64,000 nt of DNA from Schmidtea polychroa (lineage: Eukaryota): positions 18,044,001 through 18,108,000 of the forward strand of contig CM097885.1 in the NCBI GenBank assembly GCA_044892525.1, written 5' to 3'. This document shows, piece after piece, positions 533 through 14,929 of the stretch; positions within the stretch are counted from its first letter, which is position 1, and the number at the start of each line of letters is the position of its first letter. The notes below the pieces were generated by a model. It saw nothing but the letters and a program-made list of their open reading frames with translations. It had not been told where the DNA came from and ran no database searches. The translations under genes were made by a program, and so were the position numbers.

Positions 533-2458
533 ATGGCAAATGATAATGCTGTTATGCCTCTCAATAGAGAGATGATTGATTTCGCAAGTTGCCAGAAATT
601 ACCCGTCAATCAATATGGAGGAGACCCTGTTGAATTTGCAGATTTCATGGGAGATTATTATATGTACGCCTCAGCATACGGATGGACACAAGCCATTATG
701 GTTCAGAGATTCCCACTCTATCTGAAAGGTGCGGCAAGAGAAGCCTGGCAGCAAGTCGACAAACGAAATGTTGGCAATGATTGGACAAAATTGAAGGATG
801 CAATGGCACTGAAACTGGTTGGTGGAGATATCAAAAGAATCATGCGACAGAAATTTTATAATCGAGTTCAAGGTCCAGATGAATCGGTCAGTGAGTTTGC
901 TTATCATCTGACCACTTTAGCAGATAAAGCCTTTGAAGTTAAACCAGACCAAGCAGATATGGCCAAGCAGGTTAAAGAGCCATTAGAAGATCAGTTTATA
1001 ACCGGAGTCCACTCCGAAATCAAAAAAGCCCTATGTTATGTGGATTTTTCCAATTTTGATGAGCTCGTGAAGAAAGCCATGAAGATAGAGCTGAATTTAA
1101 AAAGTGCAAAAAGATCAGATGCTTTTGGAGTTAATGTGGAGAGACGTGAGCGATCAATTACGCCTGTGAGAGCACCATGGGATGAAAAGAAAATAAATCA
1201 GATCAGTAGTCCAATTTTGAGACCAAATAATAGATTTCAAGCCAGTAGATCAGCCATGAACGTACAATCAAATGGACAGGTAAATAATCCTCAATGCGAA
1301 CATTGCAAAAAGTCTGGACACTACTCAAATCAATGTTGGTTCAAATATGGGAAAAATCCCAGCCCTAACAAGAGATTCACAGAAAACAAGCGGATCAGCA
1401 GTGATGTCGAATGCTATCGATGCGGAAAGAAAGGGCATATTAGCAGAAACTGTTTTACCAGATCAAGGTCATCGTCAACGTCACCTTCACCACAAAGGGA
1501 CAAAGTGAATACAAATGGACAGATCCAATGTCATTCGTGCAAGGGATACGGCCACATGGCGCGATCATGCCCAAGGAACTCAGAAAGATTCAGCAGACCT
1601 ATCTTAAAGAAATCAATCAGATTCCAAGAAGATATGCCAAACACCAGTAACATGACATATGCTCAGAGAGAGGAATTTCAAGACAAAATGGAAAAGGAAT
1701 TTCGAGAAATGCGACAGAAGCTAAACAAACTAGTGGCGAAATTTGAATCAGATGAGGAAACTGAATCTCATATGATAATTGGAACCGTGTCAGAAGGTGA
1801 GGGAAAACCTGCCACGAAAGTGCGAAATATCGCTTCAGATGAGAATCCAACTGCACTGTTAGCCCGAGTTGAAAAATGGCTTGAGAAAATGGAAACTGAC
1901 AACTCCCAGTTGAAACGATGGATCGCAGAACTCAGTGTGATGTCACTAACCCAAAGCGAACTAAAGAGAGCCATAAATTTATGTGCAAAGTTATTCAAAG
2001 GAAACAGAGACGATGAGATACTTAAAGAAATGCAAAGGTTTGGCAAGGCTTTACGGTCAACAAGGGATTTAGCTGATATCATAGTGGAAACGACGGGACT
2101 TGATAATGTGAAGTGCCAATTCCGTTTAAACGCCTACGGACAAATCAGAGAGTTAAAGGAGCGAATACTGCGTCAATACAGTGGATGGCAAGTGCAATTA
2201 AAATTCGAAAATCGATGTCTGGAAGACGAAGAGTACTTAGTAGATTGCGGTCTGATACCAGGCTGGAAAAATAAAGTAAATGTTATTAATGCTGTTAATA
2301 CTTTGAATTCAGACAGACAAAATTGGGAAAAGATTCTAGCAGATTTACAAGATACCCTGTATGCAGGGAATAGAGATAAAATTAATGCGAGTATCGACTT
2401 CATAATGAGCATCGAAATGGATCGAGACATGAAAGAAGGGTTGTTTGAATGCACCTAA
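533..2458 (+). CDS. gag: Gag (capsid-like region, 3 CCHC zinc knuckles, coiled coil) with a C-terminal ubiquitin-like domain and the start of a Bcl-2-like domain
   Basis: YLKGAAREAW and RVQGPDESVSEFAYHL capsid motifs; CEHCKKSGHYSNQC, CYRCGKKGHISRNC, CHSCKGYGHMARSC; UBL-like IRELKERI..QLKFENRCLEDEEYLVDCGL; first ATG at 533. Confidence 0.9.
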   Translation: MANDNAVMPLNREMIDFASCQKLPVNQYGGDPVEFADFMGDYYMYASAYGWTQAIMVQRFPLYLKGAAREAWQQVDKRNVGNDWTKLKDAMALKLVGGDIKRIMRQKFYNRVQGPDESVSEFAYHLTTLADKAFEVKPDQADMAKQVKEPLEDQFITGVHSEIKKALCYVDFSNFDELVKKAMKIELNLKSAKRSDAFGVNVERRERSITPVRAPWDEKKINQISSPILRPNNRFQASRSAMNVQSNGQVNNPQCEHCKKSGHYSNQCWFKYGKNPSPNKRFTENKRISSDVECYRCGKKGHISRNCFTRSRSSSTSPSPQRDKVNTNGQIQCHSCKGYGHMARSCPRNSERFSRPILKKSIRFQEDMPNTSNMTYAQREEFQDKMEKEFREMRQKLNKLVAKFESDEETESHMIIGTVSEGEGKPATKVRNIASDENPTALLARVEKWLEKMETDNSQLKRWIAELSVMSLTQSELKRAINLCAKLFKGNRDDEILKEMQRFGKALRSTRDLADIIVETTGLDNVKCQFRLNAYGQIRELKERILRQYSGWQVQLKFENRCLEDEEYLVDCGLIPGWKNKVNVINAVNTLNSDRQNWEKILADLQDTLYAGNRDKINASIDFIMSIEMDRDMKEGLFECT

Positions 2459-5274
2459 CACGAACTGAGTTAGATCGAGATGTAATATTGACAGCGTTAG
2501 CCTATATAATATTGGAGATTGGTATTTATGGTTGTCTGGAAAATGACAGTTCAAAATCATTGATAAAGAAAGCTACGGAAATGACGAATAAATATTTGGC
2601 TAGGTGGATCGCAAACAATGGCGGATGGGAAAATTTGATACAAAAGGCTGAGAGCCCAAAAACCGAGACAGTGAGGAAAAAGGGAAAACTCGCATTTCCA
2701 TGGTTGATGATTTCTGTTATTATGTTATTGGGAATAATAAACACGACGAATTCCTTGGTGGCATACGACTGCTCCCAAACCGAAATGGGAAGAGTATATT
2801 CGTTGGTAAACGTAGCAGAGTGTTCGGATGCATATCCAGTAAAATTTAAAGTGACAAATCCAGTAAAATATTATGTATATCAAGAATCGGGATTTCGACG
2901 AGCAAAGGTGAGAGAGTGTACAGTGAAACGAACTACTTTTGTATTTTATTGTGGAAAATGGAGTCACTCATCGATGGTGAAAATGCAATCGATACCTAGA
3001 CCGATAGAAATAATTCCAGAGAATTGTTTGGTAGCCTTTGAAACAGGACAGTTGAAAATCAATGCAGATCTCAAACTACAAGCAAAGCTTAACCACAAAA
3101 TCCGTGAGACTGTAACCGTGCGAGGGATAATAAAGTCGAATGGTGATTGCCAAGGCGAGCCATACAAAGTAGACGATGCTATAATGGACAAAGCCGTGGT
3201 TGTGGAAGAGTACATGTCAGAATTAAGAGAATTTGATGGATCATTTGATGATGATACTGGTAAACTACAAACACATCCATTCTGCAACATGAAACAATCT
3301 AGCTGTCAGACAGGAGAATCAATCTTGGTGTACGATGTCGATACCAAAAAGTGCAATTTAGTGCAATTGAAGTCAATGAGTTTTAAAGAAATAACGGGAG
3401 AACAGATCAGGGAAAAGCCTGAGAAAATAAGAATGGATCCAGCAACGAGTACAACAACAAGAATCACACCTCTACGGATGAAAGATACTCCAACAGTGTT
3501 AATGTCAACCTCGGAGGAAGATGGGATGCGATTCCTGAGAAAAGAAACTAAAACAAAGTGTGGACAAAGTGTCTATGAGACAAATTATAAAGGTATATAT
3601 GTATCTCAGAAGATGATTACAGAGGCCCAAACAAACATACATGCCGGAGATATTAAGTTGACAAATTACTTTAATAACAAAATAGATTATTTATTTCACT
3701 TTGGTCAAAATACTGTTGAAAATGTGTACCGAGAAGTTATTATAAATGATTGCAATCTCAACAAAGAAATACTCCGAAATCGGATGGCAATGGCTATAAC
3801 CAATCCTAATTTGGTAGCACCAATGTTAATTGCAGAAAATGGAGTGTTCGCCAGAATTTTCGGTGAAGCACTATATAGCTATAAATGTAAAGCGGTACCA
3901 GTTAAACTGTCAAAGTATGACCAATGCACCAACGAGTTACCAGTGAATTTAAATGGAAAGTTGCGATTTATGGAGCCTGTAACACGAATCTTACTGGAAG
4001 AGGACGCGAAACCGAAAGTATTACAGTGTAATAGATTGTTAGCACCATTATACAGACTAACACCAGAATCTTGGATTGCATTACCAGATCATCGAGAAGT
4101 AAAGACACCGGAAAACTTAGAATTGACAGAATTACAATATCTGGTAAATTTTACGTCGTTAGAAAAATTGTCGCAAAGTGGAATTTACTCGAACGAAGAC
4201 ATTGAGGAAGCTCGCAGAAACTTGTTATTTCCATCAAAGAAAGAAAGAGTAATAATGGAAATGGTAGATACAATTCTCCCAAGCGGAAGTGGGAAGGTAA
4301 ATTATGAGTATTTGTTAACTCCAGATCATTACAAGAAAGCGACGTATAATACAATGAAAAAGATCTGGGGAAAGTTTATGTTCATTGGACAAGCATGTGC
4401 CGGATTGATTGGAATTTATGTAATATGTGTTGTAATCAAAGTAATAATATCGCAGGTCCTATCAACACACAGATTATATGCGATCACAGGTTGGTCGTGG
4501 AAACTAGTAATTGGTTGCATACCATTATTGGCTAGATTCTTCATTACTCATCATCAATATCAGGAGTTGGAGATACTCAAGGCTCGAATATTAAAGAAGA
4601 AAAAGGTGAGCTACGCGAGTACAACCCCTTCAAGGGACGAGAACAATGACAATGACAACGAGGGTGATAGTGCACCGTTATATGTTGACAATCAAGAACT
4701 AAGTGGAATGAATAAAGAAGCGTTAAGAACCTATCAAATCTTAAAAGAGCCACTGTTGAATGCGAGTAGCGTAGACACGTTTACAAAACTGTGTATACCA
4801 AAATCATTTATGCAACCAGCACCAGTGTATCCAGTTGATCGATTACGAGAGATGAAACCAGTGGAAAATATCGCATTACAATGTGAAGGAATGGTAGGAG
4901 AGAGAATCGAGCCTTCTAGCGCAGAGATCGAGAGAAAAAATATGTTAGGCTTACCATGCAACTACTCAATGATGACATTAACAAAAAGAGGAAAGCAACC
5001 CCGAATATTTATACAAATGAACAAACATAAAGTGGAAGCTTTAGTCGATTCGGGATCTAGTCACACAATAGTATCGGAAAATGTATTAAACGCGAAGGAA
5101 AACATGCGAATGAAGCCTACCGACGAAATAGTGAGGTCATTATCAAAAAATGAATTAAACATAATTGGACAACTTAACGTCATATTCCATATTGGAGATC
5201 GAATAATAGCGCACGATGCGCTCATAATGAAGGGAAGTCCAGTACGATGTCTGATCGGCATGGATATATTATAG
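2449..5274 (+). CDS. Bcl-2-like C-terminal half + TM/signal + envelope glycoprotein (chuvirus G / class III-like) + TM + aspartic protease
   Basis: BH2-like WIANNGGWENL (2605-2637); hydrophobic stretch 2689-2739 followed by LVAYDCS; Cys-rich ectodomain of ~540 aa; TM ~4375-4455 then LYAITGWSWKL; ALVDSGSSHTIVS and CLIGMDIL protease motifs. Confidence 0.85.
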   Translation: MHLTRTELDRDVILTALAYIILEIGIYGCLENDSSKSLIKKATEMTNKYLARWIANNGGWENLIQKAESPKTETVRKKGKLAFPWLMISVIMLLGIINTTNSLVAYDCSQTEMGRVYSLVNVAECSDAYPVKFKVTNPVKYYVYQESGFRRAKVRECTVKRTTFVFYCGKWSHSSMVKMQSIPRPIEIIPENCLVAFETGQLKINADLKLQAKLNHKIRETVTVRGIIKSNGDCQGEPYKVDDAIMDKAVVVEEYMSELREFDGSFDDDTGKLQTHPFCNMKQSSCQTGESILVYDVDTKKCNLVQLKSMSFKEITGEQIREKPEKIRMDPATSTTTRITPLRMKDTPTVLMSTSEEDGMRFLRKETKTKCGQSVYETNYKGIYVSQKMITEAQTNIHAGDIKLTNYFNNKIDYLFHFGQNTVENVYREVIINDCNLNKEILRNRMAMAITNPNLVAPMLIAENGVFARIFGEALYSYKCKAVPVKLSKYDQCTNELPVNLNGKLRFMEPVTRILLEEDAKPKVLQCNRLLAPLYRLTPESWIALPDHREVKTPENLELTELQYLVNFTSLEKLSQSGIYSNEDIEEARRNLLFPSKKERVIMEMVDTILPSGSGKVNYEYLLTPDHYKKATYNTMKKIWGKFMFIGQACAGLIGIYVICVVIKVIISQVLSTHRLYAITGWSWKLVIGCIPLLARFFITHHQYQELEILKARILKKKKVSYASTTPSRDENNDNDNEGDSAPLYVDNQELSGMNKEALRTYQILKEPLLNASSVDTFTKLCIPKSFMQPAPVYPVDRLREMKPVENIALQCEGMVGERIEPSSAEIERKNMLGLPCNYSMMTLTKRGKQPRIFIQMNKHKVEALVDSGSSHTIVSENVLNAKENMRMKPTDEIVRSLSKNELNIIGQLNVIFHIGDRIIAHDALIMKGSPVRCLIGMDIL

Positions 5275-8200
5275 CAGCTGGACGGAGTCTCACTTGATTT
5301 AAAGACAGGTAATTTGATAGCAGGAGAAACAGGAGAAATAATTCACAGGGCAGGTGAAGTGTTTGTGAATCAGACATTGACAATACCACCACAATCGGAG
5401 ATGGTATATTGTGCAAATACCATGAGTGTGGATAATGGTGATTTTATATTCGAACCAAATCAAACGCTAGTCGAAAAATATGATTTACCGATATGTGACG
5501 AAGTTGTCAAAGTGGAAAATCAGATAGTACCAGTCCATATAACGAATAGCAGCAAAAAACCGGTTCAGCTACACCCAAAAACAAAATTGGGAAAATTATC
5601 AAAAATGTCTATTGAAACAAATTGTAAAATACCAAGAAACGTCAAGGTGTATAAGGAGCCTGAAGTGGTAAGCAATGATTTAAATGAGATGCAGAAAAAG
5701 GAATTCACAAAACTGTTGAGGAAATACCGAGATATCTTTGCCAAACACGAATATGATTTGGGTTTAACCAATGTAATTGAGCATGAAATACCGTTATTAG
5801 ACGAAACTCCAATAAAAATAAAGCCATACAGAATCCCCTACGTTCATCAAGATGAAAGCGATAGACAGATTACAGCAATGAAGGAATTTGGAATAATTCG
5901 AGATAGCGCGTCACCATTCTCCTCATCAATAGTGATAGTTAAGAAAAAAGATGGAGACTTACGATTTTGCGTAGATTATCGGAAGCTAAATCAAGTTACA
6001 AGGAAAGACACTTATCCAATTCCGGTACCCCAAGAAATGTTTGATCAAATGGGAGAGGCACGATATTTCACAGTTATTGATTTAAACAAAGGGTACAATC
6101 AATTTAGAGTAAAAGAGGAAGATAGAGGAAAGACGGCGTTCTCGGATGGCAAAGGACTGTATGAGTTCAATGTGTTACCATTTGGAATAACAGGAGCCCC
6201 AGCTACATTCCAACGAGGAATGAATTATGTGTTACGAGGAATTCGACATGCATTGGTATATATCGACGATATAATAATATTTTCAAATGATTTTGAAGAA
6301 CATCTGAAGGATGTAGAAACTGTATTTAAACGGCTCAAAAGTGCAAAATTAAAAATCAAACCATCGAAATGTGAATGGGGCAAAGCAGAAGTGATTTATG
6401 TAGGACATATAATATCACGGCGAGGGTTACAAACTAATCCAGATAACATCAAAAAAGTGGAAGAGTACCCAGTACCAAAAGATGCCGATGAGGTTAGACA
6501 ATTTTTAGGTTTGGCGAGCTATTACAGAAAATTTATAAAAGATTTCTCTCATATCGCACAACCATTGAATACGTTACTAAAGAAAAACAATAAATTTATT
6601 TGGGGACAAATGCAACAAAACGCTTTCAATACATTAAAAGAGAAATTAGTAACAACTCCTATATTAAGATGTCCAGATTTTACAAAACAATTTATCTTGA
6701 TGACGGATGCAAGCAACGTTGCATTGGGTGCGGTATTGGGACAAAAATTTGAAGGTGAAAAGGACCATGTAATAGCATACGCAAGCAGATCATTGAGGCC
6801 TCACGAGAAAAACTACTCAACGATTGAAAAGGAAACGTTAGCGTTAGTGTATGGAATTACTACTTTTAGACAATATTTATTGGGCAGAAAATTTACTGTT
6901 TATACAGATCATAATCCATTACAGTGGTTAATGAAACACAGAGATTCAGCCAGTAAGTTAATACGATGGTCAATTGCCCTCCAAGAATACGACTTTGAGA
7001 TTAAATACCGGACAGGTAAAGCTAACGCGAATGCAGATGCAATGTCGAGAATCCCAGAAAATAATAGTGAAGGGACACCTGAAAAAGTGGAAGGCACTAT
7101 ATTCGCAGCAATCAAAGCTGTTAATGATATGTCTGAACTTCAAAATGATCAGGAAAACGATAGTGAATTAAAACAATTTATGGAACAAGCGGTCAAAATA
7201 AGAAAAGAACAAGACTGGAAACGACTTACAGATGCAAACAGCAAATATGTAATTCATAATGGAATACTTAAATGTTGGAAAAATGGGGAAGCATTAATTA
7301 TTATACCAGCCAAGCACAGAGATGCATTACTGATGCAGTATCATGATGGAGCGTTGGGAGGTCATTTGTCAACGCGCAAGACGCTATCAAGATTAAAATT
7401 GAAATACTTTTGGCCGACAATGGAACAAGACGTGAAAAATTGGAGTAACAGTTGCAAAGTATGCATCACCCGCAGAAATACTGGTAAAAAGATTAAAGTA
7501 CCATTAAAACCGATGCCAGTACCTGCAGCACCAATGGAGATGACGGCAATGGATATTCTGGGACCATTACCGGAAACAACAAAAGGAAACAAATACATTG
7601 TTGTTTTTTGTGACTACTTTACCAAATGGCCAGAAGCATACGCTATTCCAAACCAAAAAGCAGATACGATTGCTAGAATATTTGTGGAAAACATAATATT
7701 TCGCTATGGTACTCCAAAGAAATTGTTAACTGATCAAGGAAAGAACTTTCAAAGCGAGATGTTTAAATCAATCACAGACTTATTTGGAATTTGGAAATTG
7801 AATACGTCACCATATCATCCACAAACTGATGGATTGGTGGAACGATTTAATGGGACACTGATAAATATGATCTCATCATATGTGAATCGAAAACAGAAAG
7901 ATTGGGACGACTTCATAAAGCCGTGTCTGTTTGCCTACAGAAATGCAGTAAATCAAAGTACAGGAGAGACCCCTTTTTACTTGATGTATTTAAGGAAAAA
8001 TAATATGCCGATTGATCTCAAATTCCAACCACCAATTTCACAATATATGGAGATACCCGATTATAAAGCAGGTTTGACAATAAAGCACAACCAAGAGAAA
8101 TATAAAGAATCATACGATAAAAAAGCACATGCGCATGGCATAAAGATTGGAGATCTAGTATATCTGAACAGACCGGAACCTCTCAAAGGTTTATCGCCTA

Positions 8201-9081
8201 AATTGCAAAGACCATTTAAAGGACCCTACAAAGTGTGCGACACCACCGAAACCAATTTGAAGTTATTACCATTCAGGAGTAAAAAGGCTAACCCGATGAT
8301 TGTGCATGCAAATCGATGTAAACTAGTGCCAGAGGAAGATGAATCTAGATACCCCTTAAGATCCAAGCAGAATAAAGTAACGGGTCAAACAAAATTGAAA
8401 CAGAAATTCACGAAAAATCCAACACCAGTCAGCTACATCAATAAGATATTATATGTAGCAATAATGCTGATGTTAGTAACAGTTGCGAGCGGCAAAAAGA
8501 TTGATTTACCATATGCGGTAAACAAAATCCGAGGAATGGAGAAAATACATATATATTCCACTCTAACAAATATAGTATGGAGCTGTAAATGCGAGATCGC
8601 AGACCAAATAGAAATTATTAATTTACTAGCCAATACGGCACCAGTGGTAGAACTGAATTATGATAAAGATATAGTTGCGGTACGAAAGTTAAAGCCAAAT
8701 TACAAATACCAATGGCTGTTGAGACAGAACATGTCAAAGTGGTACACGCAAATTCCGATAGAAGTGCACACAAAAGAGATGCGAAACTTGATCGAGATAG
8801 AACCAGAGATAAACGGAATCAATATATATTGGAAGCCAGTGGACTTGGTGAAAGTGCGACTCACATTTCAAGGGTTAAATGTCGACACCCTTAACTCGCG
8901 AAAATCATTTATCCGCTACGAGAAATTGAAAATGAATCAAAATTATTCAGTTAATGCAAACTACTACGAGAACATATGCCTCGAAAATGGAACGGTAGTG
9001 AGAAACCAATGGTCACGATTTAAGAGTGAGACCCAGTCTATCTATCTCAGAGACGAGTCAAATCGTATAACCCTTATATAG
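5275..9081 (+). CDS. pol: Pol (RT, RNase H, integrase with GPY/F) fused to a signal peptide and FN3-like ectodomain; in frame with the upstream ORF across one TAG
   Basis: LRFCVDYRKLN, LPFG, YIDD (6259-6270), TDAS, HHCC zinc finger, D-D-E (MDIL, TDQG, VERFN), PFKGPY; hydrophobic ILYVAIMLMLVTVASG after the integrase. Confidence 0.95.
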   Translation, partial: QLDGVSLDLKTGNLIAGETGEIIHRAGEVFVNQTLTIPPQSEMVYCANTMSVDNGDFIFEPNQTLVEKYDLPICDEVVKVENQIVPVHITNSSKKPVQLHPKTKLGKLSKMSIETNCKIPRNVKVYKEPEVVSNDLNEMQKKEFTKLLRKYRDIFAKHEYDLGLTNVIEHEIPLLDETPIKIKPYRIPYVHQDESDRQITAMKEFGIIRDSASPFSSSIVIVKKKDGDLRFCVDYRKLNQVTRKDTYPIPVPQEMFDQMGEARYFTVIDLNKGYNQFRVKEEDRGKTAFSDGKGLYEFNVLPFGITGAPATFQRGMNYVLRGIRHALVYIDDIIIFSNDFEEHLKDVETVFKRLKSAKLKIKPSKCEWGKAEVIYVGHIISRRGLQTNPDNIKKVEEYPVPKDADEVRQFLGLASYYRKFIKDFSHIAQPLNTLLKKNNKFIWGQMQQNAFNTLKEKLVTTPILRCPDFTKQFILMTDASNVALGAVLGQKFEGEKDHVIAYASRSLRPHEKNYSTIEKETLALVYGITTFRQYLLGRKFTVYTDHNPLQWLMKHRDSASKLIRWSIALQEYDFEIKYRTGKANANADAMSRIPENNSEGTPEKVEGTIFAAIKAVNDMSELQNDQENDSELKQFMEQAVKIRKEQDWKRLTDANSKYVIHNGILKCWKNGEALIIIPAKHRDALLMQYHDGALGGHLSTRKTLSRLKLKYFWPTMEQDVKNWSNSCKVCITRRNTGKKIKVPLKPMPVPAAPMEMTAMDILGPLPETTKGNKYIVVFCDYFTKWPEAYAIPNQKADTIARIFVENIIFRYGTPKKLLTDQGKNFQSEMFKSITDLFGIWKLNTSPYHPQTDGLVERFNGTLINMISSYVNRKQKDWDDFIKPCLFAYRNAVNQSTGETPFYLMYLRKNNMPIDLKFQPPISQYMEIPDYKAGLTIKHNQEKYKESYDKKAHAHGIKIGDLVYLNRPEPLKGLSPKLQRPFKGPYKVCDTTETNLKLLPFRSKKANPMIVHANRCKLVPEEDESRYPLRSKQNKVTGQTKLKQKFTKNPTPVSYINKILYVAIMLMLVTVASGKKIDLPYAVNKIRGMEKIHIYSTLTNIVWSCKCEIADQIEIINLLANTAPVVELNYDKDIVAVRKLKPNYKYQWLLRQNMSKWYTQIPIEVHTKEMRNLIEIEPEINGINIYWKPVDLVKVRLTFQGLNVDTLNSRKSFIRYEKLKMNQNYSVNANYYENICLENGTVVRNQWSRFKSETQSIYLRDESNRITLI

Positions 9082-9099
9082 AAACGATATATAGTATAA

Positions 9100-9570
9100 A
9101 CGATATATAGAAAATCAGGAAATGATGAAAGAGTTGTTATTATCTACAAACAAAAAACCCTGACTATATTAGATGCCGGTAATCATTTTTTTACACTTTA
9201 CACTTCTGATTTAGAGACGGCATGGGAATTAACAGTTAAATATCAGCGATGGATAACCGATCCAGGCAGATGGCAAACAGTTTTCGTGGAAGTCAAGACA
9301 ATCAATGAATCGAAACGAAAATCATATACAACCACATCACCTTTCCAATTACCGACCCAAGAGACGACAAAACCTAACTCAAACAAACTAATGATGATAA
9401 ATTCGGATTTGACAGTCAACTATTGTGAATATCTCATTTACATTTTAATAACAGGTTTTCTCATCTTATCAATAACATTCATAATCATCACCATCTTGAT
9501 ATGTGTAAAAGAGAGACAACTAACTATCCTTCAACCACCATCATATTCATATTATGAGACAAGACTATAA
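9100..9570 (+). pseudogene. In-frame continuation of pol: third FN3-like repeat, S/T stalk, TM, cytoplasmic PPSY and C-terminal ETRL
   Basis: Same frame as pol, open 9100-9570; separated only by two stops inside a local AAACGATATATAG duplication (9079-9110). Confidence 0.7.
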
Positions 9571-9752
9571 ATTGTGATCTGCATGAATAGTGTATAAAAA
9601 AAAATATATATTACATTTATATTAACAATGTGCATGTTTTATAAGTACCATAGGATGAACTGTGTAATTTGTTTGAGATTCGAAGCGAGGTGTTGATGCT
9701 TTGCGAATAAAGAGTGATACAAAAAAAAATAACTATCATTTAATTTCAGAGA

Positions 9753-9998
9753 ATGCAAGAAGCCTCGGAGATGACATGCAAAGAGTGTAAAACAAGTACG
9801 CAAGAACTAAAACAAAAGTTTCGTAGCATGCAGGGCAGAATAACAGATTTGGAGGAAGAAAACTTCCGTCTGAAAAGGCGGTTGGACCGTTTGGAAATCT
9901 TATTGTTTCAACACGAAGCCGATTTCGCGATGTTTCGAATGAGAGTAGAAGAAATGGAGGAATCGGAAGATGATGGTGAGATAAATCAATTAGACTAA
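9753..9998 (+). CDS. Small coiled-coil (leucine-zipper-like) accessory protein with acidic tail
   Basis: Heptad pattern ITDLEEENFRLKRRLDRLE, CxxC, acceptor-like TTTCAG just before the ATG, AATAAA right after the stop. Confidence 0.55.
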   Translation: MQEASEMTCKECKTSTQELKQKFRSMQGRITDLEEENFRLKRRLDRLEILLFQHEADFAMFRMRVEEMEESEDDGEINQLD

Positions 9999-12964: not shown

Positions 12965-13707
12965 TTTAGCATACATTGTTGAACGTCTGGAATAAAATTG
13001 GTGCGTGGTCCGCAAACGGTTAAATTGATTTCTTTCTTTTCTTCACAATGACTTGGTGAAACAGCTAAAAATTTACATCGATATAAATATTATATAACCA
13101 AATTCGGGTGCCATTACAAAATTACCTAAAACAATCGGTCGCCGATAGTTGACTAACAAAATATATGAGGCATAATCAAGTTAAATATTATTTAATAGTA
13201 TATATTACATAAAAGTTTTTATAATCTTGTAAATGAAACCAAAAAAAAAATATTTCTTGCCAAATATTGATTCGATTGATAACATTGATCACATTTGGAT
13301 ATTCAGTCATATTATTTTTACACAAAATATATAAACCTAAATTCAAGTTGCAAAATTAAAATTGAAATCATGTTTCACTACCATTCAAAATACTATCTTG
13401 ATCAATGAACTCTTGGTAATATAAATAATATAAGCCTTGTTCGGTTCGGAACGAAATCAATTTTTCAACATCACTGATAAACTAATTACCAAAAACGGAA
13501 CACGATTTTCCAATAATTAAAATTTTAAACATAATCAGAGTTTTGATCTTGCTTTCTTGATTTTGGAATCGTAATAATCTGATCAGAACTAAATAACTGT
13601 ACTGTCAATCTGAGGGAAATTTCAAATACATATGGGAAATGGCTCAACGAATCACACGAAGAGGATTTATTCGTGCTCACAATTTTTCATTGGACTATAT
13701 TTGCAAA

Positions 13708-14929
13708 ATGATTTGTGGTAAATCTGAATTATGTATATTTGATAGACCATCGCCCCAGGCTGTAATAAAATTTGGGGCTTTTGAGGAAGTTTTTCCTATG
13801 AATTCAATTACCGATAGTAGAAATGATATAGAGTTTTATATTAATGGTTCGCAAACTGAATATTTAGATTTGAACGATACTTTATTGACTGTTCAGATCA
13901 AGGTTGTAGATAAAGATAGAAAAGTTTTGGATGCCAATGCAGATGTAATACCGAACAATTTCCTGTTTCATACTCTTTTTAAATGCAGTGTTGGGATTTA
14001 ATAATATCAAGATTGAGGGTGGAAATAATACATTCATTCACAAGGCATTAATAGAAACTATTTTAAATTACAATTCCGATACTAAAAATACATGCCTTAC
14101 TCCTATGGGTTATGCAGCAGCAGATGATGAAAGAAAAAAGTGGGTTAAAGGCTCAAAGGTTTTCACCATGTGCTCATCATTACAACTCGATTTTATGGAT
14201 CAACCGAAATATTTACTACCGGGAGTTAATGTACATATTAGACTGAAAAGGTCTGATTCTGTATTATCTCTTACTAGTGCAAATGGTGCACCAATATGTC
14301 AATTAGTTGATGCAAAATTATTGGTGAGAAGAGTTAGAGTAGACCCCTTAGTATTAGCTGGTCATCAATTGGGTCTTAATTCAAAACATGCAATTTATCC
14401 ATTAAAAACAAAGGAAATTGTACAATTCGCTATTGCTAAAGGTGCTTCATCATTCTATAAAGAACAAATATTTGGTGACAGAAGAATGCCTAATTTTATT
14501 CTGATAACATTTCAAAGTGAAGCACAATATAATGGATCATATATTGCGTCCAGCTCAATTTTCAAAAACTTTGGTGTTACATCATTGACTTTGTCGAAAA
14601 ATACTGATTATAGAGAAACATATATTCAAGATTTCGAAAATGACAATTACTGTGCGACATATATGCAGAGTATTGTTAGAAATCTGGGTTATTTAGATAA
14701 AAATTTGAATTGTGGAATAACTCTAGAAGAATTTAAAAGCAAATACCCATTTTTTACATTTGTTTCAGCCCCTGATTTTGATTTAAATCAGAGTCAATTA
14801 CCTCAAAATGGAAATTTACGACTGGATATAAAGTTTGCAAAAGCTATTACTGAACCAGTACATGTTACAATATATGGAGTATTTGAAAATGAAATTCAAA
14901 TTACTGCAAATAGAACTGTGTTGGTATAA
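13708..14929 (+). pseudogene. Maverick/Polinton (adintovirus-like) major capsid protein, frameshifted at ~13982
   Basis: KSELCIF N-terminus, IEFYING..EYLDLNDTLL, QPKYLLPGVNVHIRLKR, GNLRLDIKFAK, VFENEIQI. Confidence 0.85.

Follow-up and report, generated by a model that had tools for sequence, protein, structure and literature searches.

A predicted Bcl-2-like domain ahead of the probable envelope signal in an envelope-carrying gypsy-type retroelement of Schmidtea polychroa

The first 9.6 kb of the window (the whole 64,000-nt stretch of Schmidtea polychroa DNA that was analyzed) is a gypsy-type retroelement, as identified from Pfam matches and open reading frames. It is a broken copy of an envelope-carrying element, and in natural unbroken copies a single frame runs from Gag through two ubiquitin-like units, a Bcl-2-like domain, a signal, and Env to protease and Pol. 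The domain of these unbroken copies, for which a Bcl-2 fold is predicted, may well be tethered to the endoplasmic reticulum (ER) via the Env signal and dampen host death or innate signaling. In this proposal, Gag, the predicted Bcl-2 domain, the Env signal, and Env would be translated together in one frame, and a cut at the likely internal signal of Env would leave Gag together with this domain held at the ER membrane. There, the domain would serve as a binding module of a non-standard kind and dampen the cell-death or innate signaling of the host.

The element and the deletion in the window copy

Pfam places a Gag capsid, three zinc knuckles, a class III fusion glycoprotein, protease, reverse transcriptase, RNase H, and integrase in this order along the forward strand. 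The inner end of the 5' LTR occupies positions 1 to 280 and aligns at 96-97% with the 3' LTR of two other copies; this LTR of about 1.06 kb starts before the window and continues upstream into stretch L073. Directly after it comes a likely primer-binding site (282 to 299) that begins with TGG and was assigned from sequence and position rather than from a tRNA match. The first part of the polyprotein frame (533 to 2458), which is cut short by a deletion, contains the Gag capsid region (710 to 964; Retrotrans_gag, E 7.5e-10), three CCHC zinc knuckles with approximate limits of 1295 to 1570 (zf-CCHC in three stretches, E 1.5e-10), and, preceded by a helical part, ubiquitin-like domain 1 (2081 to 2257). 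Downstream of the Bcl-2-like domain and the signal lie Env, a class III fusion glycoprotein (2755 to 4520; Monjiviricetes_fusion, E 9e-95) with a transmembrane segment placed by hydropathy near 4393-4449, an aspartic protease (4993 to 5271; gag-asp_proteas, E 3.6e-7, and RVP), reverse transcriptase (5938 to 6414; RVT_1, E 1.4e-33), RNase H (6676 to 6990; RT_RNaseH, E 2.9e-40), and the zinc-binding and core domains of integrase (7303 to 7821; Integrase_H2C2 and rve). The post-integrase tail (8428 to 9498) was delimited by hydropathy and extends from a second signal-like segment (8428-8484) to a final hydrophobic one (9442-9498). With Gag, a class III Env, the PR-RT-RH-IN order, and flanking LTRs, the family has the features of Gag-Env-Pol errantiviruses, that is, of Ty3/gypsy elements with a class III Env.

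The window copy is defective and cannot make the Bcl-2-like domain. Besides the deletion, it carries a stop at 5272-5274 that cuts the protease, it has a gap of some 33 bases close to position 8067, and its post-integrase tail is broken by a stop at 9079. No 3' LTR of this copy was found within the window.

The ubiquitin-like domain is part of a helix-plus-ubiquitin-like unit that was seen at positions 1850-2453 of the window, at 3-926 of natural copy L006, and in L072 and L079. The unit is doubled in element families A and C of this genome and in metagenome contig L072, and is single in family B. Ubiquitin-like domain 1 alone matches Pfam ubiquitin with an E value of 0.028, and a profile built from seven units has ISG15 as its best PDB match (E 3.5e-6). 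A resemblance of the helical unit to TFIIS-N-like or LUBAC-tether-like domains was also considered, found no support in profile searches, and was rejected.

The initial annotation had placed the Bcl-2-like domain at 2300..2745, with a helical region spanning a frameshift. The presumed frameshift is in fact an 892-base deletion private to the window copy, with its junction at 2453..2454 and a 1-base overlap. When aligned, each of the other 39 copies that were scored is split at position 2453 of the window, and 17 of the 19 copies that were fetched have exactly 892 extra bases at the break (one has 873, and one could not be measured); the entire locus is open in 13 of the 19. The deletion is considered private to this copy because other copies carry the extra bases, the junction was found once in the genome (781 Mb, with four large contigs), and splice ends are absent. 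Splicing at the break was rejected given that the ends are not GT-AG, and a programmed frameshift was rejected given the uniqueness of the junction. No joint at the deletion was seen in four sequencing runs, and the assembled contigs were uninformative on that point.

The deleted part comprises most of the second helix-plus-ubiquitin-like unit, an acidic linker, and approximately residues 1-67 of the 134-residue Bcl-2-like domain. The sequence at 2300 to 2453, which has no Pfam match, belongs to the helical start of this second unit according to alignment A5 and natural copy L006, and lies outside the Bcl-2-like domain. What survives of the domain in the window is its second half, at 2454 to 2646, which matches Pfam Bcl-2 with an E value of 0.0078.

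The element family is abundant and young. Among 1,155 candidate copies, the 150 that were scored for the Bcl-2-like domain all have 90-100% identity; 10 of these have open frames of 3,333-3,336 residues, and 8 have a stop inside the domain. Each of the two copies examined has LTRs of about 1.06 kb that are 99.8-99.9% alike, and their total lengths are 15.1 and 17.8 kb. A 9,754-base contig from one sequencing run spans the region; this run is only presumed to be RNA, and the contig was therefore not counted as evidence of expression.

Several other features were observed in and around the element. The second signal-like segment and the last hydrophobic segment after the integrase suggest a second membrane protein, and comparable segments lie between three protease-like domains in L071. 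An 84-residue coiled-coil-like frame at 9744-9998, with no Pfam match, follows the polyprotein. Segments that are 99.85% alike (7947-28287, 31541-51878, and from 62641) are repeated in tandem about every 23.6 kb; the repeat starts inside the integrase tail of the element and may be a genuine array or an assembly effect. Two adjoining frames at 13597-14929, for which Pfam gave no informative match, presumably resemble Maverick-associated genes.

The Bcl-2-like domain and its predicted fold

In the unbroken copy of family A, the Bcl-2-like domain matches positions 7-100 of the 100 in the Pfam Bcl-2 profile (PF00452), with an E value of 0.0012 and a score of 19.8 bits, which is below the Pfam gathering cut-off of 31.4. 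Three family B copies (L048, L057, and L059) score above this cut-off, at 32.2-33.3 bits. For profile A4 and the structure model, an alignment of 14 retroelement-only rows was used, of which 11 have a Pfam Bcl-2 match (E up to 1). When compared with the PDB, profile A4 retrieved only Bcl-2-family chains among the best 60 matches listed, with a best E value of 0.004. The domain occupies an equivalent position in all three families of this genome (A, B, and C), in the proteins P0002 and P0003, and in two metagenome contigs, L071 and L072. The domains of the other lineages have 18-34% identity to that of family A, and the sequence signal is very weak in L071 and L072. The Pfam matches in natural unbroken copies, taken together with an alignment-based model that matches Bcl-2-fold structures, support the earlier proposal of a retrotransposon-borne Bcl-2 domain.

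A HMMER search of 1.8 billion representatives returned two matches, P0001 and P0002, the first of which is a repeat protein and was dropped as a chance match. No longer proteins with the domain were found among 634 candidates, which is weak evidence, and no relative was found among 29 pattern matches in viral_contigs. In the ESM Atlas, Bcl-2-like 15 and Bid were retrieved at 0.90-0.91 with recognition values below the threshold of the tool, and these are taken as a lead only.

Structure prediction indicates that the domain almost certainly adopts a Bcl-2 fold. AlphaFold2 with the 14-row alignment gave a model (pLDDT 76, pTM 0.75) in which the whole domain forms a helical bundle round a central hydrophobic helix, the arrangement that characterizes the Bcl-2 fold superfamily and that the initial annotation had anticipated. 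When this model was compared with 48,161 chains, ranks 1-36 were all Bcl-2-fold chains, and the first unrelated chain had a Z score of 5.1. The best match, with 128 of the 134 residues aligned and an rmsd of 3.5, had a Z score of 12.7, which is close to the level at which the tool issues a warning for helical bundles. Foldseek matched the model to Mcl-1 (E 2.3e-3, probability 1.0) and also to viral Bcl-2 proteins, with no match reaching an E value of 0.001. The case for the fold rests on the consistency of the family and on full coverage. A model obtained from the single sequence (pLDDT 61, pTM 0.48) did not yield the Bcl-2 fold. For that model, Foldseek ranked Bcl-2 first, but with an E value of 0.23 and an rmsd of approximately 15, and the wide search led to generic three-helix bundles. 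It was discarded for its low confidence, and the alignment-based model was used instead.

The strong BH2-like sequence that had been reported is present: LARWIANNGGWENL, at 2596-2637, has the WIxxxGGW pattern of BH2 and aligns to the BH2 of human Bcl-2. The BH2 Trp is near-invariant across the aligned lineages, and BH2 is eroded in L071 and L072. The reported BH1-like sequence holds for its position but not for its signature. ELDRDVILTALAY, at 2467-2505, sits in the BH1 position and has DRDV where the Bcl-2 family has NWGR. NWGR is replaced by DRDV in family A, by DKEV in family C, by NRDK in family B and P0002, and by TFTK and TFNT in P0003 and L071. The BH1 Gly is lost in all lineages seen, and the position of the Arg is occupied by Val in families A and C and by Lys in family B and P0002. 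The canonical pro-survival signature, NWGR with its Gly and Arg, is absent from every lineage seen. On sequence reading, helix 2 has no Asp at the BH3 position. Directly before the Bcl-2-like domain, family B (L041 and L046) has a helix, AAERLRDIANNM, which lacks the usual BH3 Asp and which we take to resemble BH3.

Published descriptions give the Gly and Arg of NWGR an important part in BH3 binding (PMC9027176, PMC7719400), and the loss of this signature in every lineage seen makes standard BH3 binding doubtful. Some poxviral Bcl-2 proteins are reported to bind BH3 through other Arg residues (PMC7719400), and the loss of NWGR therefore leaves BH3 binding possible. The domain is probably maintained, though probably in a role other than that of a standard BH3 trap. 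The version proposed by the initial annotation, in which a standard pro-survival viral Bcl-2 binds BH3 in its groove and the hydrophobic helix is a true tail anchor, has to explain a mixed record. The predicted fold, the conserved BH2, and the Lys at the Arg position in family B and P0002 are compatible with it, whereas the missing Gly and the Val of families A and C are not. Together with the properties of the hydrophobic helix, this makes such a protein quite unlikely.

The hydrophobic segment before Env and the possible role of the domain

Any Env encoded in frame behind Gag needs a signal peptide. The basic linker and the hydrophobic helix noted in the initial annotation were confirmed, and both belong to a likely internal signal peptide of Env at 2674 to 2754, which comprises a basic n-region (2674-2688), a hydrophobic core (2689-2739), and a c-region (2740-2754), with a predicted cut after 2754. 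This assignment comes from hydropathy and from the comparison of nine sequences, which represent only about six lineages. The n-region is positive in all nine. The (-3,-1) rule is obeyed in eight of them at TNS|LVAY (2754/2755), and in four at most at any other offset. The distance from the hydrophobic core to the A-[YF]-D-C motif of Env is fixed at 7-9 residues, while that from the BH2 Trp to the core ranges from 23 to 62. We read the segment as the Env signal peptide because its spacing is fixed relative to Env and variable relative to BH2. It is likely a cleavable internal signal peptide, and the cut predicted at TNS|LV, where signal peptidase cleavage had been proposed, is very probably correct.

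The related claim that a tail anchor doubles as the Env signal was sustained as far as the signal-peptide features are concerned, but the term "tail anchor" was an overstatement. The spacing follows Env and not BH2, and the uncharged run has only 12-16 residues in five of the nine sequences, with 20-27 in the other four. For the standard Bcl-2 protein discussed above, the 23-28 residues that separate BH2 from the helix in family A and P0002 are Bcl-2-like, and the uncharged run of 26 residues in family A is also favorable. The spacing of 51-62 residues in five sequences and the short runs argue against it, as does the co-translational context, which would point to the ER.

More than 2,000 residues follow the segment during synthesis, which on general cell biology precludes post-translational tail-anchor insertion and favors the ER over mitochondria. 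The upstream product would be left on the cytosolic face of the ER in the orientation of a tail-anchored protein. The earlier picture of a membrane-anchored Gag-Bcl-2 may thus be right in effect, although the membrane would be that of the ER and the anchoring perhaps only brief. We lean slightly against a lasting ER tether, which the protease of the element or signal peptide peptidase could release.

Selection on the domain was estimated from dN/dS. Between subfamilies B and B', the ratio is 0.12-0.13 for the Bcl-2-like domain, 0.05-0.06 for capsid and Env, and 0.19-0.35 for the flanking linkers, in a comparison whose dS of about 1.1 is near saturation and whose three pairs are not independent. 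For a pair of copies from family A, with approximately 24 changes, the ratio is 0.40 in the domain versus 0.34 in the linker. The transmembrane and Env rows of L051, which diverges after the linker, and the saturated rows comparing A with C were dropped. By these ratios, selection on the domain is moderate. If the domain were a relic of an earlier capture and by now no more than a spacer, this would agree with the value within family A, with the very weak sequence signal in L071 and L072, and with L091, a copy that has lost the middle of the Bcl-2-like domain in frame. Such a relic is nonetheless improbable in view of the low ratio in family B, the near-invariant BH2 Trp, and the fold-compatible pattern that is kept across lineages less than 35% identical.

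The Bcl-2 fold could also have been repurposed as a matrix-like adaptor, with the stub of the Env signal holding Gag where Env is made and cell death unaffected. Poxviral Bcl-2-fold proteins with non-apoptotic roles are known, and this arrangement would suit the position directly before the signal, which is kept in all lineages seen, the erosion of the groove signature while the fold is kept, and the absence of a myristoylation-type Gly after the first Met. It seems unlikely, given that the domain evolves faster than capsid or Env in family B, that the BIR and MATH domains of the related Burro elements point to death and ubiquitin signaling, and that Gag-Env-Pol elements of other phyla are reported with no mention of such a domain in the text and supplements consulted (PMC13524379). 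An effect of the domain on host death or immune signaling, as in our preferred reading of an ER-tethered binding module, is a proposition that we regard as evenly balanced.

The origin of the domain was explored by comparing the retroelement profile with 257 frames of host-like and Maverick-like loci. The best match was L032, a divergent and apparently cellular Bcl-2-like gene (E 3.6e-11), followed by the Maverick-borne L054 (E 6.9e-6). No donor is claimed because a tree of 23 rows lacks resolution (support for the retroelement group, 33/30). A bolder and rather unlikely scenario is that a divergent animal Bcl-2 was captured once, long ago, and fused before Env, giving a working cell-death inhibitor with a rebuilt groove that is anchored by the signal and keeps producer cells alive in a regenerating animal. 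If this were true, reverse-transcribing elements would have their first functional Bcl-2-family protein, with a parallel in the Bcl-2 cargo of Mavericks in the same genome. Multi-copy Maverick-like elements of this genome (L036, L039, L054, and L055) carry a Bcl-2 gene, in some cases apparently split by an intron. Separately, seven near-identical canonical Bcl-2 genes with NWGR (L021-L027) are clustered on one contig.

Relation to known elements and Bcl-2-fold proteins

Gag-Env-Pol elements of flatworms were described in a 2026 survey (PMC13524379). One of them, Platyhelminthes_Rhabditophora_Smed_errantivirus_2, has a 251-residue Env stretch that, compared by eye, equals that of the window at 244 positions. 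Like the element of the window, it has the Gag-Env-Pol order, an Env of the HSV/gB type, and many copies (215 listed). It differs in having no Bcl annotation, the term "Bcl" being absent from the main text and the supplements examined of the survey, and the window copy differs from it in being broken.

The giant gypsy elements of planarians known as Burro or GYPSM1 were reportedly described by Grohme in 2018 and Jurka in 2007. In planarian Burro, one frame is described in which Gag and CCHC knuckles are followed by a domain like ubiquitin or SUMO, a BCL2-like motif, and an Env resembling that of mononegaviruses, all upstream of protease, RT, RNase H, and integrase, and interference with apoptosis and ubiquitination has already been proposed for it as a hypothesis (PMC6431247). 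Its transcripts are reported to go up on loss of PIWI silencing (PMC8532177). The family found here shares with the published Burro the ubiquitin-like domain, the BCL2-like domain, and Env in frame between Gag and protease. It differs in size, with 15.1 and 17.8 kb and about 3,334 residues compared with more than 30 kb and a 4,873-residue frame, and the MATH, BIR, and ankyrin domains of Burro have no Pfam match in its polyprotein. Because the element is half the size of Burro and is without MATH, BIR, and ankyrin, it is called Burro-like and not a Burro, a separation that is drawn from the published description of Burro.

A giant Burro was also sought in this genome. No Burro-1-like polyprotein was found, and the frames that hold the gypsy pol near a TRAF/IAP pair reach about 1,200 residues at most. 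This multi-copy gene pair (L081 and L083) is TRAF-like (RING, zinc fingers, and MATH) and IAP-like (BIR and RING), with at least 149 BIR matches, and in L082 a gypsy pol lies on the opposite strand near the TRAF/IAP genes. Troyka was rejected as a relative, being described as without Env (PMC12440569).

Both the order of the domains and the family of the element had been published before, and the original Burro description may cover the present family. In the literature consulted, no paper was found that tests the domain or discusses a shared anchor and signal; the original Burro description and Repbase may say more. What is new is the structural support from prediction, the erosion of the groove, and the analysis of the signal peptide. 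With these, a motif mentioned in print for Burro becomes a delimited domain whose fold and ER topology are predicted and whose groove is altered, both in a compact family and in relatives found in other samples. If the domain is kept under selection in a very abundant and recently active retroelement, transposons too would tune host cell death.

Most known viral Bcl-2 proteins come from large DNA viruses. With those proteins and their cellular counterparts (Hydra Bcl-2-4 [6wgz], Bcl-xL, Mcl-1, KsBcl-2, and A179L), the retroelement domain has in common the predicted fold over the whole domain and the BH2 pattern WIxxxGGW. Unlike them, it has neither NWGR nor the BH3 Asp of helix 2, it is embedded in a polyprotein, and the helix that follows it leads into Env. 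The matched poxviral chains N1, A52, B14, and A46, which we take to have the Bcl-2 fold and non-standard roles, resemble the retroelement domain in having the fold without the canonical signature (ranks 29-35). Their Z scores of 5.8-7.4 are lower than those of cellular Bcl-2, and they are stand-alone proteins. For the proposed topology, the closest parallels lie in unrelated viruses and in proteins without a Bcl-2 fold: in flavivirus C-prM, hepacivirus core-E1, and the foamy virus Env leader, a cytosolic protein is left on the membrane by the signal of the downstream glycoprotein.
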